From Thermomicrobiales bacterium (GTDB lineage: Bacteria; Chloroflexota; Chloroflexia; Thermomicrobiales; CFX8): a DNA stretch of 64,000 bases. The translations under genes were made by a program, and so were the position numbers. The number at the start of each line of letters is the position of its first letter. Position 1 is the first letter of the stretch. Of the stretch, positions 28,571 through 35,662 are shown one piece after another. A model generated the notes under the pieces. That model was not told the origin of the DNA and made no database searches. It saw only the letters and a program-made list of their open reading frames with translations. The DNA is taken from the NCBI GenBank assembly GCA_023954495.1, contig JAMLIA010000005.1:6174-70173 (forward strand), given 5' to 3'.

Positions 28571-29209
28571 TTAGCCGAGGACCCGTCCGAGCTTCGTCTG
28601 GTGCGATGGGCGGAGATCTGGCGCAGCGTGACGCAGGGCATCGACAGCAGCGACGAGCGCCGAGTGCGAGGCTGACTTCGCTTCCAGCTCGATCTCGCCG
28701 AACGTGATTTCGCGACCGTCGTTCAGGCGCGTTCCGGTGCAGCGGTCGATGGCAAGCTCAAATGAATTGCCATCTGGGTCGACGAGGTCGATGGCGGTGC
28801 GAACGTTCTCGATCGTCGCGACCGGCTGCAGTGGTGCGTCGCCGACGATGCTCCTCGCTGCCGCCAGCGGTTCGGGCAGCTTCGAGAGCCGGCCACCTGC
28901 AAGCAGCGCCTCCGCATCGTTGGCGCTGATTTGCGCGTTGATTTCCGGGCGTGAGGCGACGTGCGCCAGATCTGCGGACATAGCTTCGCGTGGTCCCTTG
29001 AACGTCAGCGTTGCTGCATCGTTGCTCGCTCGAACGCGCAGCGTCGATGACGCCGTCTCGAGTCGCGCGTCCGCAGAGTCGAGGTAGGTGTCATGCTGAT
29101 GGATGGTGCGCGTCCGCGCGATGCGTAACGGCGGGAACGACGTCGCATCGAGGAGTGAGGACACATCGTCAATCTCGAACTTGGCTTCGACTTCGCGTGG
29201 TTCAATCAT
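28571..29209 (-). CDS. CYTH-domain protein (triphosphate tunnel metalloenzyme family)
   Basis: N-terminal ExExK signature EVEAKF, then LRVR...TLTFKG beta-strands and a C-terminal IELE acidic strand. Confidence 0.8.
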   Translation of the reverse strand: MIEPREVEAKFEIDDVSSLLDATSFPPLRIARTRTIHQHDTYLDSADARLETASSTLRVRASNDAATLTFKGPREAMSADLAHVASRPEINAQISANDAEALLAGGRLSKLPEPLAAARSIVGDAPLQPVATIENVRTAIDLVDPDGNSFELAIDRCTGTRLNDGREITFGEIELEAKSASHSALVAAVDALRHAAPDLRPSHQTKLGRVLG

Positions 29210-29932
29210 AGGTCGCTCTCAGCAGATCGCGAATCCGGCGATCGTGGTTTGGCATGCCGCATTCGAGCATCCGCAACACGGTCGTTCCGTGGTCGTAGGG
29301 CACACGATGGATTGCGCCGTGCCACCCGGATCCTGGCGACCATTCGAACGAGCCCCAGACAGCGCGCCGATCCCCATCACGAGGTAACCCGCAAGCGGCC
29401 ACGTCGAAGAGGTGCAGCGCGCCGACCTGGCGGTGATAGGGGATGTGCAGGTGGCCGAAGACCAGAACACCGGCATCGAACGGTGCGACGAGATCGCGCA
29501 GGTCGTCCGGCGGCAGGTCGGGGAAGATGTGTCGATCCAGGTCGGTCGGGTTGGCATGCACGACCATCAGGCGATCGCCGTCCGGCGCGATGGTGTCGCT
29601 GAACTGCAATTCGTTCAGACGCCTGATGCGTGCGTCGCCAAGCTCCTGGCGCGTCCACTCGATCGACGCGAAGGCTTCTTGCGCCAAGGCTCTGGATCGC
29701 TGGCTCCATGCTCGATGATGTCGCGGTCGGTATTACCGACAAGCAGCACGTCGGCGCGTTCTGCAATCAGGTCGAGCGCTGCGGCTGGGTCGGGGCCATT
29801 CAAGCAGTAGTCGCCACCTGCGACAAGGCGATCGAATGTGCCGAGACGCTCAATATCAGCCAGCACAGCTCGCAACGCCTCCAGGTTGCCATGCACATCG
29901 GTGACGACCGCCACGCGAAGCTCAGTCGGCAT
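29202..29932 (-). pseudogene. Metallophosphoesterase (YfcE/MJ0936-like) with interrupted reading frame near 29687-29692
   Basis: The N-terminal part (VAVVTDVHGN, GGDY, VGNTDR) is in one frame to about 29689. The C-terminal part (VVHANP, FGHLH) continues in another frame (ORF 29202-29687). Confidence 0.7.
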
Positions 29933-30548
29933 CCTGCTGCTCGGCTTCCGATGCTGTCGTCGCCTCCGCCTCGGCGATCGCTTCGTCGAGATGGGCACGC
30001 AGGCGACCTGCAAAGTCCGAGCCCATCAATCTTCGCCAGGCTGTGATGAACGCTTCATAGGCGAGGAAGCGGTCTTCTGAACGGAACGCGACGAGGGTGA
30101 AGAGCGCTGCGTCATCGCGCTGACCGCGTGGCGAGGTCGTTGAGCCGCGGATACGCTGCTGGCGTTGCGCGACGGTGCCGCGTTGCCGATTCGTGGCGAT
30201 ATCGAGCAGCTTCTGCGTCCGTTGCTCGGCATTGGCGCGCGAGATGTGGAGCATCCGCTCGATCATGACGTCAGCGTCGTGGAGGTCGCCGATATGCTCC
30301 TGTATCTCCTTGACCTCGTTGATCAGGCTATTCGTCCCCGACGGCAGTGCAAATCGGAATAGCTCGAGTGAATAGCGCAGCCGCTTGGCCGCGATCCGCA
30401 GATTGTGGATCTCTTCAACGTTGTCCGGGTCGTCGACCCAGGGTGCGAAAAAGAGCATCTCATCCAGACGTGTCTGGATGACGAGACGGGCGTTATAGGC
30501 CGTCGAGCGATCGCAGCGGATGCCGCTGATGCGTCGTGCTTTAGCCAC
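29922..30548 (-). CDS. CHAD domain, second half (possible continuation of 30541-31020)
   Basis: HNLRIAAKRLRYSLELF and IGDLHDADV are CHAD repeat motifs. A candidate GTG at 30548 overlaps the upstream stop (GTGGCTAA). Confidence 0.65.
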   Translation of the reverse strand: MAKARRISGIRCDRSTAYNARLVIQTRLDEMLFFAPWVDDPDNVEEIHNLRIAAKRLRYSLELFRFALPSGTNSLINEVKEIQEHIGDLHDADVMIERMLHISRANAEQRTQKLLDIATNRQRGTVAQRQQRIRGSTTSPRGQRDDAALFTLVAFRSEDRFLAYEAFITAWRRLMGSDFAGRLRAHLDEAIAEAEATTASEAEQQDAD

Positions 30549-31020
30549 GAGAGTACTCCGCCAGGAAGCCACGGAACCGCACGTCGAAGCGCTCCGCGTC
30601 GAGCATGTCGAAATAGGCCAGCATGTCAGTGCGCTTGACCTCGCGTTCAGCGCGAATGTCGCGCAGCATGCGATTGATTGTCGGGTGCTCGGCCGCAGGG
30701 CGAGTTCGGCGATAGGCGACGAGCGTTTCGCGCAGGACATCGCAGTCGCGCACGCCGCCCAGCACGTCGGTCAGTTGCTTGATCGTGCGATGGTAGTAGC
30801 GATAGCGCTGGCGTGGGAAGCACTCAACGGCCACGTCCATGGCAGCCCGTAGTCGACGGGAACCGACCCGCATGTCGTGGAGCTGCTCGGGGTCGCGCCC
30901 GAGGAGCGTGCCCGCGCGATACGACATCATCGTGTCGAACCGCTGTTCGATGATCCTCCCGATTGCAATCCGGAACTCAGTCGCGCCATCCATGCCGTCG
31001 AACTGCTCTCGTCGTGCCAT
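30541..31020 (-). CDS. CHAD domain, first half
   Basis: HDMRVGSRRLRAAMDV and LGGVRDCDVL are CHAD repeat motifs. At 159 aa it is about half a normal CHAD domain. Confidence 0.65.
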   Translation of the reverse strand: MARREQFDGMDGATEFRIAIGRIIEQRFDTMMSYRAGTLLGRDPEQLHDMRVGSRRLRAAMDVAVECFPRQRYRYYHRTIKQLTDVLGGVRDCDVLRETLVAYRRTRPAAEHPTINRMLRDIRAEREVKRTDMLAYFDMLDAERFDVRFRGFLAEYSRG

Positions 31021-31069: not shown

Positions 31070-31723
31070 TCAGAGGATTTCCTTGACCTTCGTCCTGATC
31101 GTCCGGGCAATATCATCTACATCTTCGTTGCCGTCGATAACGGTGAATGCATACGACTGGCTGAGGCGCTCGAACTCGTCGAACACCCGCTGCTGATAGA
31201 TCTGAAACGATTCGGCCGGGTCGCTGCTCAGGCCGAGGTCCATTCCGACTTCGTAGCGGTCGATTGCTTTGACTGGCGTGCTGGGTACGCGATCCTTGGT
31301 CACCTCTGGCGGTACGCGCAAGTAGAACACAGCGTCTGGCTCAGGTGCGAAGCCATATAGCGTTTCCAGCCATGCGTGGTTTGCACCCCGCGCGACATCG
31401 CGGGCGAAGGCGGTGTAGATGTAGCGATCTGCGACCACGATTTCGCCACGCTCCAGTGCGGGGCGAATGACGTTTGCGACGCGATCAGTGAAGTCAGCGG
31501 CGTAGAACAGGCTGAAGGTGATCGGTCGTAGCTCTCCGGCCGCCTTGGCTTTGTGGATCGCCTTCGAGATGTGCGGCGACGTGCTCCAGTCGGTCCGGAT
31601 CGGCTCAATTTCGCGTCGACGCAGCCAATCCAGCAGCAAGCGGACCTGTGTGCTGCGCCCGGAGCGGTCGATGCCTTCGATCACGAACAGGCGTCCTGGA
31701 AGAGCGGGCGCTGCTGCGCTCAT
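31070..31723 (-). CDS. Thymidylate-kinase-fold P-loop protein, paralog B (non-canonical Walker A)
   Basis: LFVIEGIDRSGRSTQ is a P-loop with Arg in place of Lys, followed by ADRYIYTAFARD (DRY motif). Its start shares an ATGA overlap with the upstream stop. Confidence 0.75.
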   Translation of the reverse strand: MSAAAPALPGRLFVIEGIDRSGRSTQVRLLLDWLRRREIEPIRTDWSTSPHISKAIHKAKAAGELRPITFSLFYAADFTDRVANVIRPALERGEIVVADRYIYTAFARDVARGANHAWLETLYGFAPEPDAVFYLRVPPEVTKDRVPSTPVKAIDRYEVGMDLGLSSDPAESFQIYQQRVFDEFERLSQSYAFTVIDGNEDVDDIARTIRTKVKEIL

Positions 31724-32433
31724 GCCGACTCCATCCGTTCCAGCATTCCGGCGACGATCGAGCGTAACTCCAGTTGCTGTTTGCGCACCGGGTCGCGCGC
31801 ATCCAGCGCAACCATGTCGAATGGGCGCACGAATTGCTCGTATTCGGCGACGACGCGCTCCTGGAACTGACGGAACGATCCGAGCTGTCCACGCACTCCG
31901 GCTTGCTCGTCAGCTTCCTCGATCGTCGATTCACCGGCGATTCCCATGACCCGACCTAGCGAGGTATCGGCGTCAATACGCAGATAGACGGACAGATCGG
32001 GTCGGACGGCGAAGCCATAGAGATTGAGGATCCAGTCGATCTCGACGCCGCGCGCGATGTCGCGAGCGAACGCGGTATAGACATAACGATCGGCGAGCAC
32101 GACGTAACCGGCACGCAGGGCGGGGATGACCTCGTTGTCGTTGCGCTCGGCCATGTCGATCGCGTGCAGGATCGAGTAGGTGCGCGCTGCGAGCGTGCGT
32201 TGTCGACGCGCTTCGGCGATTGTCTTGGATACGAGCTTCGAGGAGTTCCAGGACGTGCGGACAACGCCATAGCCCTGCACGCGCAGCCAGGTGTCAAGCA
32301 TGTCGATCTGCGTCGCCCGACCCGACCCGTCGACACCGTCGACGGTGATGAGTGCGCCCGGGAATGTGTGGTGTTCCCAGGACGATGGATTGGCTGGATC
32401 AAGCCGACTGGTCGGCCAGCGATCATCGGTCAT
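31720..32433 (-). CDS. Thymidylate-kinase-fold P-loop protein, paralog A (non-canonical Walker A)
   Basis: LITVDGVDGSGRATQ is a P-loop with Arg in place of Lys, followed by ADRYVYTAFARD. Its start shares an ATGA overlap with the upstream stop. Confidence 0.75.
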   Translation of the reverse strand: MTDDRWPTSRLDPANPSSWEHHTFPGALITVDGVDGSGRATQIDMLDTWLRVQGYGVVRTSWNSSKLVSKTIAEARRQRTLAARTYSILHAIDMAERNDNEVIPALRAGYVVLADRYVYTAFARDIARGVEIDWILNLYGFAVRPDLSVYLRIDADTSLGRVMGIAGESTIEEADEQAGVRGQLGSFRQFQERVVAEYEQFVRPFDMVALDARDPVRKQQLELRSIVAGMLERMESA

Positions 32434-33287
32434 GCGGACCGCTTCTTCCCTTTGCGACGATCGCCCATATCAACGAGAACACGGGACGGGACATCGCCCA
32501 ACGAGTGGAATTCCGCCCTGACACTGCCGTGCTGCTCGATATCGTAAGACAGCAAACCGACCGCCTTGCCGGGCGAGCGATCCAGCAGCGACGGCGCGTT
32601 GACGACGGCCATAACGCGATTGTCGCGGTCAAGCTGCCAGACGTTTACGCGGTGCAGGTGCGCGCAGAGCACGAGGTCGACTCGCGCTTCGAGAAGCAGT
32701 TCGAGGATATCGCCGGCGTTCGGCAGAATGTCGCCCTCCTTCAGCTTCTTGCCCGGCACAGGCATCAGCGACCGATGCGTGCAGAAGATGCGGGTCAGCT
32801 TCGGCGATGAGCCCTCGAAGTACGCTAGTGCGCGATGCAGTGCGTCTTCCGGTATGACTGGTTCGCTATCCAGACCGACGATGCAGGCTTCGCGCGTGCG
32901 GTCGAAGAAGTCGACATCGGCGAAGAAGTCGAGGAACGGCGTGGTACGCGGTCGGTCGTGGTCGTTTTGCTCCAGCGCAGTGTCCGGCGCTGTCAGAAAA
33001 TAATCCAGGTCGGAGTCCGGCGGTCGAGTTGGACCGGGGCCACCAGCGAGGTAATCGCGATTCCCCGGGATCGCCCTGATGCGATCGAGCCCGAGTGAGG
33101 TCAGAAAATCAACCACCGGACCGAACTGCTCGACCAGTCCACGCTGCGTGAGATCGCCGCTCACGATGATCAGATCAGGTTCGAGCTTGTCGATGATCCC
33201 ACGTGCTAATTCCAGGCCGAGATCGACGTCCGGGCCCGGTGCATAGTGAAGGTCAGACAGTTGCACGATACGCAGTTGGCTACTCAC
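32430..33287 (-). CDS. Metallophosphoesterase (calcineurin-like), first gene of the ppk1-divergent operon
   Basis: MPE motifs VQLSDLHY, IVSGDLTQRG, IPGNRDY, CTHRSL and CAHLHRV. Confidence 0.8.
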   Translation of the reverse strand: MSSQLRIVQLSDLHYAPGPDVDLGLELARGIIDKLEPDLIIVSGDLTQRGLVEQFGPVVDFLTSLGLDRIRAIPGNRDYLAGGPGPTRPPDSDLDYFLTAPDTALEQNDHDRPRTTPFLDFFADVDFFDRTREACIVGLDSEPVIPEDALHRALAYFEGSSPKLTRIFCTHRSLMPVPGKKLKEGDILPNAGDILELLLEARVDLVLCAHLHRVNVWQLDRDNRVMAVVNAPSLLDRSPGKAVGLLSYDIEQHGSVRAEFHSLGDVPSRVLVDMGDRRKGKKRSA

Positions 33288-33502
33288 TCTCGATTGAATC
33301 GACCTAAAGCGTAGGACAGATGATACGCTGCAAAAAAGAAGTTTGTGTTAAGCCGCTGCGTCGAGTGTCGGGTACAGTGAATTCAATGGACCTCGGCGCG
33401 GCACCATCTGGCGTACTGGACAGCAGGCGATGCTGCGTCGATCATGCGACGTAAGCCATGTGGCACGTAGCTCGTGCCGCGACCGTGGTGAGATTCAGCA
33501 CG

Positions 33503-35662
33503 ATGACAAAGAGACGGCGACCCGTGACGAGCAGACGAGACCGAGCCAATGCCGCGGCGTTGAAAGCGCCGGAGCTGTACATCAACCGTGAGCTGAGTTG
33601 GCTGGAGTTCAATCGGCGCGTCCTCGAAGAGGCGCAGGACACAGGCAACCCGCTGCTGGAGCGCGCGAAGTTTCTCTCAATCTTCTCGTCCAATCTCGAT
33701 GAGTTCTTCATGGTGCGAGTTGCAGGAATCGTCGGTCAGGTGCGTGCCGGCGATGACACGGCTGCTCGCGATGGTCTCACCCCTGCGGAACAGCTATCGG
33801 CGATCAAGCTGCTGGCCACCGAGATGTCAGTCCGCCAGCGCGAATGCTGGCACGGCGAGATCGTCCCGGCGTTGCGCGAGCACGGTGTGCATATCGAGAC
33901 GTACGCAACGCTCTCAGGGCGCGACCGGCGCTCGCTGACCCGCTACTTCGAGCGGCAGATCTTCCCGGTGCTGACGCCGCTGGCGGTTGACTCCGGCCAC
34001 CCGTTCCCGCACATCTCGAATCGCAGCCTGAATCTGCTGATCCTCATTGAGGACGAACTGGGACGCCACATTGCGCGGATGAAGATTCCGCCGGTTCTGC
34101 CACGCTTCGTTCAGATCCCCGATGCTGACGGCGGGCCGCCGCCGAGTTCTCGGCGCAAGCTCCGCTACGTGATGCTGGAAGACATCATCGAAGCGAACCT
34201 CGATCAACTGTTCCCCGGCAAGCAGATTCAGAGTAGCTACTCTTTCCGTGTCACCCGCGATGCAGATTTCGAGGTCGCCGCCTCAACCGGCGACAGCCTG
34301 CTCAAGGCGATAGAACGTGAGCTCGATCAGCGTCTATTTGGCTTCCCCGTGCGGTTGACTGTTGACGACTCAATGCCGGCGGAGCTGCGCACCTGGCTCG
34401 CAGATCAGCTCGGCGCGGCAGAGACAGATGTCTATATGATGGATCGTCCGCACGGTCTGTCGGATGTCATCGAGCTGTATTCAATTGATCGTCCAGCGTT
34501 GAAGGACAAGGCGTTTGTGCCGCGCTATCCGGAAGTCCTGAGCCAGGCAGATTCGATCTTCCAGGCGATCCGCAAGCAGGATGTGCTCCTGTATCACCCG
34601 TACGATTCGTTCGCGCCGGTTGTCGATTTCGTGCGTCAGGCCGCGTCCGATGAGGATGTCGTCGCGTTCAAGCAGACGCTCTATCGCGTCGGTGCGCACT
34701 CGCCGCTGGTCGATGCGCTGATGGAAGCACGCGACGACGAAACGCAGATCGCAGTGCTGGTGGAGTTGCGTGCCCGCTTCGATGAAGAGAGCAACATCAA
34801 CTGGGCGCGGTCGATGGAGGCCGAGGGCATCCACGTTGCCTATGGCCTGCCCAAGCTGAAGACGCACTGCAAGATCGCGATGGTTGTCCGCCGCGAGGGT
34901 AACGATTTGCGGCAGTACATTCATCTCGGAACCGGTAACTACAATGTCGCGACGTCGAGAATCTATACCGATCTGGGGCTGATGACCTGCGATCCGGACA
35001 TCGCCGCGGACGTCACGGATGTCTTCAATTATTTGACCGGCTATTCGGCGCAGACCGAATATCGCAAGCTCCTCGTCGCACCGGTGAACCTGCGAACCAG
35101 CCTGATAGCGCTGATCGAGCGCGAGATGACGTTTGGCTCCAAGGGCCGCATCATCATGAAGGCCAACGCGCTATCCGATTATGGGATTGCTGAGGCGCTC
35201 TATCGCGCCGCGAAAGCCGGGGTGCAGATCGATCTCATCATCCGCGGCATCTGCGTCTTGCGCCCCGGAATCGAGGGACTGAGCGAGAACATCCGCGTCG
35301 TCAGCATTGTCGGCCGCTTCCTTGAGCACGTCAGATTGTTCTACTTCAAGCACGCAGGACCGGACGGCAAGGAGTGCATGTACGCAGGCAGCGCCGACCT
35401 GATGCGTCGCAACCTCGACTATCGGGTCGAGATCCTCTTCCCGATTCAGGATCGCTCGATCCTGGAGCGCCTGCGCGACGGCATTCTGGAGTTGCAGTTG
35501 CGCGACAACGTGCGTGCCCGTGAGCTCCAGCGCGATGGGTCATATGTGCGTTTGTCGCCAAAGGATGGCGAAGCGCCACTCGATTCACAACTGGTACATC
35601 TGAACTATGAGCCGAGCGCCGCCGCTCGCGCGTTCATCACTGCGCGGCAGGACCCTGATTAG
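33503..35662 (+). CDS. ppk: Polyphosphate kinase 1
   Basis: YINRELSWLEFNRRVLEEA, SNLDEFFMVRV, and two PLD-like C-terminal domains (KTHCKIAMVVR, GRFLEHVRLFYF). The ATG at 33503 (MTKRRRP) is chosen as the start. Confidence 0.9.
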   Translation: MTKRRRPVTSRRDRANAAALKAPELYINRELSWLEFNRRVLEEAQDTGNPLLERAKFLSIFSSNLDEFFMVRVAGIVGQVRAGDDTAARDGLTPAEQLSAIKLLATEMSVRQRECWHGEIVPALREHGVHIETYATLSGRDRRSLTRYFERQIFPVLTPLAVDSGHPFPHISNRSLNLLILIEDELGRHIARMKIPPVLPRFVQIPDADGGPPPSSRRKLRYVMLEDIIEANLDQLFPGKQIQSSYSFRVTRDADFEVAASTGDSLLKAIERELDQRLFGFPVRLTVDDSMPAELRTWLADQLGAAETDVYMMDRPHGLSDVIELYSIDRPALKDKAFVPRYPEVLSQADSIFQAIRKQDVLLYHPYDSFAPVVDFVRQAASDEDVVAFKQTLYRVGAHSPLVDALMEARDDETQIAVLVELRARFDEESNINWARSMEAEGIHVAYGLPKLKTHCKIAMVVRREGNDLRQYIHLGTGNYNVATSRIYTDLGLMTCDPDIAADVTDVFNYLTGYSAQTEYRKLLVAPVNLRTSLIALIEREMTFGSKGRIIMKANALSDYGIAEALYRAAKAGVQIDLIIRGICVLRPGIEGLSENIRVVSIVGRFLEHVRLFYFKHAGPDGKECMYAGSADLMRRNLDYRVEILFPIQDRSILERLRDGILELQLRDNVRARELQRDGSYVRLSPKDGEAPLDSQLVHLNYEPSAAARAFITARQDPD

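Follow-up and report, generated by a model that had tools for sequence, protein, structure and literature searches.

We found that two adjacent, overlapping genes in a 64,000-nucleotide stretch of Thermomicrobiales DNA (contig JAMLIA010000005.1 of assembly GCA_023954495.1; the stretch at its full length is referred to as the window) both encode proteins of the thymidylate kinase (TMK) fold in which arginine takes the place of the Walker-A lysine. As judged from their sequences, the two open reading frames (ORFs), designated A and B, very probably belong to PPK3, a recently defined polyphosphate (polyP) kinase family whose characterized member consists of two paralogous subunits, cPPK3 and rPPK3. 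Overall, our analysis moderately favors the reading that a PPK3-family complex is formed by A and B, encoded in a polyP operon, and that this complex may serve as an accessory of the polyP system. The two genes and their diagnostic motifs are positioned as follows.

31720..32433, minus strand: ORF B, 237 amino acids, putative c-type PPK3 homolog (Pfam PF02223, 66.6 bits)
31070..31723, minus strand: ORF A, 217 amino acids, putative r-type PPK3 homolog (Pfam PF02223, 78.5 bits)
32311..32337, minus strand: P-loop of B, GVDGSGRAT, residues 33-41, placed by alignments
31649..31675, minus strand: P-loop of A, GIDRSGRST, residues 17-25, placed by alignments
32083..32091, minus strand: DRY (DRX) motif of B, residues 115-117, retained (D, R and Y 98-100% conserved in B orthologs)
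31421..31429, minus strand: DRY (DRX) motif of A, residues 99-101, retained (100% conserved among A orthologs)

The two proteins, which are 37% identical to each other, carry their substitutions within otherwise recognizable P-loops: IEGIDRSGRSTQ in A (residues 15-26; wider context IEGIDRSGRST) and VDGVDGSGRATQ in B (residues 31-42; wider context VDGVDGSGRAT). To place the arginines, we used pairwise HMMER alignments to solved structures, in which they aligned exactly with the Walker-A lysine of ST1543 from Sulfurisphaera tokodaii (GSGKSS), Aquifex TMK (GSGKTT) and Plasmodium falciparum thymidylate kinase (TMPK; DRSGKST). In B, the residue at the lysine position is Arg39 (codon CGG, 32317-32319), followed by Ala40 at the position of the Mg-coordinating Ser/Thr. 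In A, it is Arg23 (codon CGC, 31655-31657), followed by a retained Ser24, and an extra arginine, Arg20 (codon CGC, 31664-31666), stands at the position of the P-loop arginine of type-I TMPKs. The central claim of the first-pass annotation, which was made from the sequence alone and held that arginine replaces the Walker-A lysine in both tandem TMK-fold ORFs, is therefore borne out by the alignments to solved structures. None of the findings that it had named as refuting its view was made, the one of a sole tmk in the genome being addressed by indirect points. The ATGA overlap that it had described between the adjacent genes was also recovered at the same coordinates on the minus strand: a 4-bp stop/start overlap joins B to A, and a second ATGA overlap links the stop of an upstream metallophosphoesterase gene (MPE1, 32430-33287) with the start of B.

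The PPK3 family was described by Hofmann et al. (J Biol Chem 2026, PMC12995831; preprint 10.1101/2024.08.28.610084) in Sulfolobus acidocaldarius, in which Saci_2019 and Saci_2020 form an alpha2beta2 heterotetramer, SaPPK3, that interconverts polyP and ATP with a preference for the direction polyP + ADP -> ATP. Saci_2019 is the catalytic subunit (cPPK3), with polyP kinase activity and without dTMP kinase (dTMPK) activity, and Saci_2020 (rPPK3) is inactive itself and activates Saci_2019; the inactivity of rPPK3 was attributed to replacement of the arginine of its DRX motif (PMC12995831). The Sulfolobus genes are organized in the order SixA-PPX-cPPK3-rPPK3-CHAD (PMC12995831), and we retrieved the Saci locus and confirmed the c-then-r order. 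Members of the PPK3 clade are paralogs, the same genomes encoding a canonical dTMPK elsewhere, which in S. acidocaldarius is the separate Saci_0893 (PMC12995831). Most genomes with PPK3 are without PPK1 and PPK2, for which an in-situ replacement of the kinase was suggested, and the family was said to occur in 'a few bacteria' (PMC12995831).

Several lines of evidence place A and B in this family. Among solved structures, both proteins matched ST1543/STK_15430 best (E 2e-43 for A and 4.6e-42 for B; identity 33-39%), which stood ahead of the next solved relatives by about 30 orders of magnitude, canonical TMKs reaching 1e-14 or worse. AlphaFold2 models agreed with the fold: that of B (mean predicted local distance difference test score, pLDDT, 87.9) gave template-modeling (TM) scores of 0.85-0.88 to 5h70/4nzy, and that of A (pLDDT 88.3) gave 0.83-0.89 to 5h70; normalized to the target, the best superpositions scored 0.85-0.89. 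In both fold and sequence, the best match of A outside PPK3 was P. falciparum TMPK (PDB 2WWF/2YOF). B grouped with Saci_2019 and ST1543 in a neighbor-joining tree, and both A and B contain the shared hallmark V[LIV][AMS]DRYxYTA. The extended form of this motif, ADRY[IV]YTAFARD, had been taken in the first-pass annotation for a deviation peculiar to the pair. That part of its argument did not hold up, since DRY[IV]YTAFARD is a hallmark of PPK3, a large family with mostly GSGKST P-loops, and is therefore no peculiarity of A and B. What the first-pass annotation had proposed more generally, a distinct and selected subfamily in place of random decay, agrees with their membership of the PPK3 clade within the dTMPK superfamily, as well as with the strong purifying selection described below.

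Membership of PPK2 was considered and rejected because neither ORF matched PF03976, a Pfam-A hmmscan at E<0.01 having returned PF02223 alone for each. The likeness to two-domain PPK2 enzymes that the first-pass annotation had offered as an analogy nevertheless has merit: the PPK3 authors drew the same one (PMC12995831), and the neighborhood of PPK1, CHAD and CYTH genes identifies the locus as one of polyP metabolism.

We also weighed whether A and B could be ordinary or divergent dTMP kinases, one of them supplying the thymidylate kinase of the cell. Such a role might be read from their database matches, as both ORFs pass the threshold of the broad Pfam domain PF02223, A lies just over the cutoff of the TIGR00041 equivalog (83.7 bits against 83.25), many homologs are named dTMP kinases, and the ST1543 structures were deposited under that name. 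However, B (71.9 bits) falls under the TIGR00041 cutoff, the Walker-A lysine is missing from both proteins, the dTMP-site motif is replaced by YTAFARDxxRG, and the surrounding operon is one of polyP metabolism. In S. acidocaldarius, moreover, it is Saci_0893 and not Saci_2019 that provides dTMPK activity (PMC12995831). Among the matches listed, B orthologs were carried by three Thermomicrobiales GTDB species representatives, a distribution that fits poorly with an essential housekeeping gene. The canonical tmk assignment, which we consider extremely improbable, was rejected in view of the motifs, the gene neighborhood, the distribution, and the published finding that Saci_2019 does not act as a dTMPK.

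To determine how the Arg-type P-loops of A and B compare with those of other PPK3-like pairs, we used the hallmark peptide to scan GTDB species representatives and obtained at least 596 confirmed stretches. The best 80 of these at least 596, together with six loci from other look-ups, gave 86 bacterial loci, comprising seven Thermomicrobiales loci with arginine in both subunits (Arg/Arg) and 79 others; with Sulfolobus, the set numbered 87. The tandem pair was adjacent, c then r, in all 87 loci (86 bacterial, one archaeal). The P-loop of gene 1 was G[IV]DGSGKST in 79/79 of the bacterial loci outside Thermomicrobiales, 77 being read by pattern and two via tree labels and alignment, and among the matches listed for ST1543, GK[ST] was present in 120/120 of the closest c-type homologs, which came from both archaea and bacteria. 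Among the loci examined, only the Thermomicrobiales clade had GVDGSGRAT in gene 1. Gene 2 was more heterogeneous. It had GTDG[SA]GKST in 37 of 77 readable loci, mostly from gut Gastranaerophilales and none with a polyP neighbor, and GTDGVGRST or a near variant in the other 40, each paired with a Lys-type gene 1. The Arg-type gene-2 lineages included Nitrospirota, Deltaproteobacteria, several classes of Chloroflexota, Melainabacteria/Obscuribacterales, Omnitrophota, Ignavibacteria and Binatia. Where a Lys-type gene 1 had PPX, SixA or CHAD neighbors, all readable gene-2 P-loops were Arg-type, that of locus L016 being unreadable. Judged from these P-loops, a Walker-A arginine is the normal state of the second subunit in bacterial polyP-linked PPK3 pairs. 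Since arginine is widespread in r-type subunits, the unusual event in the window is the same change in B, and what appears to be new here is the spread of the Walker-A arginine to the c-type subunit.

A 50%-identity representative library gave a similar picture. At E<1e-30, 143 clusters matched B, and the P-loops of the 150 best library matches to B divided into 98 with lysine and 38 with arginine. Among the matches listed, no c-type cluster apart from the Thermomicrobiales cluster P0123 had a readable Arg P-loop, the other Arg-type matches having been classed by P-loop motif alone. Stoichiometric co-expression or a hetero-oligomer, which the first-pass annotation had suggested for the adjacent genes, is strongly, though indirectly, supported by analogy with the alpha2beta2 complex of Sulfolobus, by the translational coupling and invariant adjacency of the pair, and by natural c-r fusions, which lend Rosetta-stone support to a heteromer.

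Natural single-chain c-then-r fusions were represented by P0361 (460 aa), P0373 (359 aa) and P0428, and further two-domain single chains by P0365 (471 aa), P0377 (454 aa) and P0362/P0364/P0371 (650-696 aa). In examples of these fusions, a Lys-type domain was followed by a domain with GTDGVGRST or with a degenerate GSDYSGHYQ. An apparent B-A fusion, P0127 (414 aa, from a single ENA contig), was not used, as its A part is frameshifted and probably reflects an assembly or indel artefact. The library also contained long multidomain proteins of 900-2575 aa with one PPK3-like domain each (VEGLDGSGKST ... DRWFFTALARD), namely P0383, P0395, P0400, P0406, P0416, P0433, P0443-P0445 and P0497. In addition, the distant homolog P0486 (243 aa) reads LEGTDRSGRST, with the same DR..GR double arginine as A, which could have arisen independently or could mark a distant A-type lineage. 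In the large block of gut Gastranaerophilales/Melainabacteria loci, both subunits have lysine and the neighborhood is free of polyP genes.

To assign the two genes to subunit types, we compared them with profile hidden Markov models (HMMs) of gene 1 and gene 2 and with nine alignment columns that discriminate between the two genes of bacterial pairs. B scored 255 bits on the gene-1 HMM versus 215 on the gene-2 HMM, the same margin as for Saci_2019 and ST1543, and at the signature columns it had five c-type residues and one r-type residue. By HMM score, signature columns and gene order, B is on sequence grounds a c-type subunit. The r-type assignment of A is the weaker of the two. Two results count against it: the gene-1 and gene-2 HMMs gave A 241 and 240 bits, respectively, and in a crude neighbor-joining tree the long branch of the A clade fell between the gene-1 and gene-2 groups. 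As both the HMM scores and the tree were ambiguous, A was resolved as probably r-type by synteny and by the nine signature columns, at which it had five r-type residues and one c-type residue, exactly as did Saci_2020. The basic stretch that reads AKKKxLL in c-type proteins corresponds to ARRQRTL in B and to AKAAGEL in A, in line with a c-type B and an r-type A.

A and B lie within an operon of polyP-related genes on the minus strand, in the order MPE1, B, A, CHAD-N, CHAD-C, MPE2, CYTH, with a PPK1 gene diverging from it. The neighbors are the following.

33458..35662, plus strand: PPK1, divergent from the operon (all four PPK1 Pfam domains, 136-242 bits)
32430..33287, minus strand: MPE1, metallophosphoesterase, first gene of the operon (Pfam PF00149, E 1.4e-12)
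30541..31020, minus strand: CHAD N-terminal half, a polyP-binding module (Pfam PF05235, profile positions 2-133 of 228)
29922..30548, minus strand: CHAD C-terminal half, likely start GTG at 30548 (PF05235, positions 168-226)
29202..29932, minus strand: MPE2, metallophosphoesterase, frameshifted (tblastn of the L001 ortholog)
28571..29209, minus strand: CYTH (triphosphate tunnel metalloenzyme), last gene of the operon (Pfam PF01928, E 1.5e-21)

The same arrangement was present in six other Thermomicrobiales loci (L001-L003 and L007-L009). In all seven Arg/Arg loci, MPE1 lies upstream of B, CYTH keeps its position, and ATGA coupling and operon order are conserved. PPK1 was adjacent and divergent, within 7 kb, in 7/7 Arg/Arg loci versus 0/79 loci with lysine in gene 1. 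The Arg/Arg loci have two metallophosphoesterases and are without PPX and the SixA-type His_Phos_1 protein. PPK1 and PPK3 are kept side by side here, and the PPK3 pair is the one without the lysines. PDB searches with both metallophosphoesterases gave weak or uncharacterized matches (3rqz, GpdQ-like, Ap4A-hydrolase-like), and a polyphosphatase role for them is a guess. Promoter and terminator scans of the 28-36 kb region found none above shuffled background.

An alignment with the L001 ortholog indicated the likely start of CHAD-C. The two CHAD halves might have been a single frameshifted gene, an explanation that we rejected because they are two slightly overlapping, separate genes in all Thermomicrobiales relatives; the same split also occurs in L040, L048 and L060 from some other phyla. 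The conservation of the split thus argues against a frameshift artefact. MPE2, on the other hand, is split over two frames (29202-30013, minus strand) with the break near 29675-29687. L001 and the 95%-identical L007 each have an intact MPE2 ortholog (242 aa), which in L001 matches PF00149/PF12850, and the frameshift in the window represents either an assembly or sequencing indel of the metagenome-assembled genome or a very recent pseudogenization. In five relatives, A is separated from the first CHAD gene by a small ORF of 105-153 aa without a Pfam match, at these positions.

L001, 8749-9066: small ORF
L002, 8749-9066: small ORF
L003, 8767-9228: small ORF
L008, about 7634: small ORF
L009, about 8466: small ORF

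Neither the window nor L007 has this ORF, and the gap from A to CHAD there is 50 bp.

We next analyzed how A and B differ from c-type PPK3 and how strongly their residues are conserved. The A-type P-loop GxDRSGRST was found in all but two truncated members of 83 clusters (at least 59% identical), and the B-type P-loop GVDGSGR[AS]T in every readable cluster (at least 55% identical). Among orthologs of A, the Gly-to-Arg and Lys-to-Arg changes were each present in 98%, whereas all other groups have glycine at the position of Arg20, with a conservation of at least 95%. Among orthologs of B, the Lys-to-Arg change was present in 96% and the Ser-to-Ala change in 84%. The Mg-ligand position is variable (A/S/E) in the B clade and the arginine is fixed; the B ortholog of L001 (7291-8004) has the P-loop GAGRET, with glutamate after the arginine. 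Of 50 positions at which c-type PPK3 proteins of archaea and bacteria show at least 95% conservation, A keeps 44, its changes including G20R, K23R, N47S, S48T and one Tyr-to-Phe, and B keeps 41. Of the nine changes of B, eight fall in the P-loop (E32D, K39R, S40A), the basic stretch (K76R), the lid (G174A, D176E), and at F94V and Y119F; in addition, B is without the c-type lid lysine, and its lid is more acidic than that of ST1543. The pair has the clade membership, the c-then-r gene order and the polyP context of PPK3, and of the features that mark a PPK3 c subunit (intact GK[ST], DRX and lid), B has retained the DRX motif and lost the lysine, the serine and the lid lysine.

The Arg state is maintained and is not a product of decay, as indicated by low dN/dS (the ratio of nonsynonymous to synonymous substitution rates), synonymous turnover of the arginine codons, and P-loops that are the same across clusters. 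Pairwise dN/dS for both genes in the seven loci was 0.03-0.17, at synonymous sites that are near or past saturation, and the Walker-A arginine is encoded by CGG, CGA or CGC. In the alternative scenario, in which PPK3 became redundant once PPK1 was acquired or retained, A and B would be decaying remnants and the arginines early inactivating changes. PPK1 is indeed adjacent only in the Arg/Arg loci among the 86 bacterial ones, and the window does contain a frameshifted MPE2. Besides the dN/dS values, however, this scenario is opposed by the full-length ORFs and identical P-loops of about 80 A-type and about 50 B-type 90%-identity clusters and by the ATGA coupling and operon order kept in seven loci; the MPE2 frameshift, for its part, is absent from the 95%-identical L007 and may thus be an assembly error. 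We rejected pseudogenization on the basis of dN/dS and ortholog conservation and regard decay as a very remote prospect.

Walker-A Lys-to-Arg substitutions in P-loop kinases and NTPases usually preserve nucleotide binding and abolish most catalysis. In the accessory role that we favor, A and B would assemble in the manner of SaPPK3 into an A2B2-type complex whose stoichiometry would be fixed by translational coupling. B would supply the basic polyP cleft (ARRQR, DRY), and polyP binding would be retained, given that neither the ARRQR stretch nor the DRY clamp has been lost. The P-loops of both subunits would still hold a nucleotide or a phosphate chain, and ATP-dependent phosphoryl transfer would be abolished or strongly slowed. 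As a ligand-binding accessory of a PPK1-centered polyP system, the complex could sense polyP or the energy charge (ATP/ADP), or could act on the granule or the chain end. That it is catalytically silent or strongly attenuated is a tentative proposal, about which we are nearly evenly divided, leaning slightly against.

In addition to the ambiguous placement of A, a number of observations weigh against the accessory reading. A keeps the DRX arginine, whose loss explains the inactivity of rPPK3 in the PPK3 paper. The same arginine is kept in the 77 other bacterial gene-2 proteins, and Saci_2020 has DGY, so that the replacement seems to be specific to archaeal rPPK3. Both A and B keep the DRX arginine, the R/D/R of TAFARDxxRG and the lid arginine (Arg138-equivalent), and the P-loop aspartate and the Arg74-equivalent are invariant in both, as is the lid YExGxD in A. 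The eight listed changes of B are all conservative, as might be expected of a retuned rather than a dead site. The P-loop arginine of type-I TMPKs is catalytic, as established by structural work, and A has gained an arginine at that very site, which could compensate for the lysine. No other TMK-like ORF that could be a separate canonical tmk was found within the 64-kb window. Finally, SaPPK3 alone has provided the biochemistry of the family, the bacterial pairs being known from sequence.

Some of these points suggest instead an active Arg-type PPK3 that transfers phosphate between polyP and nucleotide, with A as the catalytic subunit and B as a structural, polyP-binding partner. Arg20 and Arg23 would then replace the lysine, Ser24 would bind Mg, and the roles of the subunits would be swapped relative to Sulfolobus. 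The 44 of 50 c-type-invariant sites kept by A include Ser24, the DRY motif and YExGxD of the lid, its P-loop has changed only by G20R and K23R, with G20R in 98% of orthologs, and its DRSGRST differs from the DRSGKST of P. falciparum TMPK at the lysine alone. B, by comparison, has lost the Ser40-equivalent and the c-type lid lysine, and in the pair as a whole all catalytic-type residues are under strong purifying selection and the changes are conservative. Yet a full-text literature search found no documented natural P-loop kinase with a working Walker-A arginine, 40 other lineages pair an Arg P-loop with a Lys-type subunit, which suggests that the arginine marks a non-catalytic site, and the adjoining PPK1 already provides reversible polyP/ATP chemistry. 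We consider an active Arg-type enzyme possible but rather doubtful, and it is more doubtful still that the pair would represent the first natural P-loop phosphotransferase without a Walker-A lysine, working through an Arg-only P-loop in A, with B demoted and the roles swapped. In the wider form of this last proposal, the GR[ST] P-loop, which is present in about half of the sampled bacterial second subunits, may be a dedicated binding site for the polyP end and not a dead ATP site.

PPK3 was defined biochemically only in 2024-2026 and from one archaeon, and our survey extends its description in three respects that lie outside the published main text (PMC12995831), which makes no mention of a Walker-A Lys-to-Arg change. 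PPK3-like pairs are present in hundreds of bacterial species. The bacterial second subunit keeps the DRX arginine and often has a Walker-A arginine, so that its inactivation or specialization would differ from that of archaeal rPPK3. Lastly, the Lys-to-Arg change has apparently reached the c-type subunit at loci where PPK1 adjoins and metallophosphoesterases replace PPX/SixA. The Thermomicrobiales pair thereby offers a clean natural experiment as to whether phosphoryl transfer is possible with an Arg P-loop. The pair also bears on the origin of pseudoenzymes under strong selection, on the replacement or combination of PPK1-based and PPK3-based polyP systems, and on the annotation of such genes, which are routinely labeled dTMP kinases.

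Among known systems, SaPPK3 provides the closest biochemical reference. Like A and B, its subunits are adjacent TMK-fold paralogs encoded c then r in a polyP operon with a CHAD protein, the hallmark DRYxYTA[FY]ARD is found on the c-type side, and A shares r-type signature residues with Saci_2020. Unlike A and B, which have arginine, Saci_2019 (GSGKSS) and Saci_2020 (SSGKTT) both have the Walker-A lysine; Saci_2020 is without the DRX arginine (DGY) and has lost many catalytic-type residues, whereas A keeps them; and the Sulfolobus operon contains SixA and PPX and no PPK1, whereas the operon in the window has two metallophosphoesterases, a split CHAD, CYTH and PPK1. ST1543/STK_15430 of S. tokodaii (PDB 2PLR, 4NZY, 4RZX, 5H70), deposited as a dTMP kinase and now recognized as a cPPK3 homolog, shares the motif (DRYIYTAYARD) and the overall architecture, but has GSGKSS and the c-type lid lysine where B has arginine, alanine and no lid lysine and where A has RSGRST.

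The bacterial Lys/Arg pairs, such as those of Binatia (L004), Nitrospirota (L063/L065/L082), Deltaproteobacteria (L030/L066) and Chloroflexota (L018/L054/L058), have the same gene order, often with overlapping genes and many of them beside CHAD or CYTH-CHAD genes, and their second subunit combines GTDGVGRST with a retained DRY, as A combines an Arg P-loop with DRY. They differ in that the first subunit has G[IV]DGSGKST (79/79), the second is without the extra arginine of A, and the neighbors are PPX and the SixA-type His_Phos_1 protein instead of PPK1 and metallophosphoesterases. Two-domain class II PPK2 enzymes, for example PA3455 of Pseudomonas aeruginosa, likewise bring an inactive and an active P-loop-kinase module to polyP, but they belong to another family, are single polypeptides, and keep the Walker-A lysine in the active domain. 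Type-I TMPKs (human, yeast and P. falciparum; GxDRxGKST) have an arginine at the position of Arg20 of A, but they keep the Walker-A lysine and the dTMP-binding residues, whereas A has arginine at that lysine and the PPK3 hallmark.

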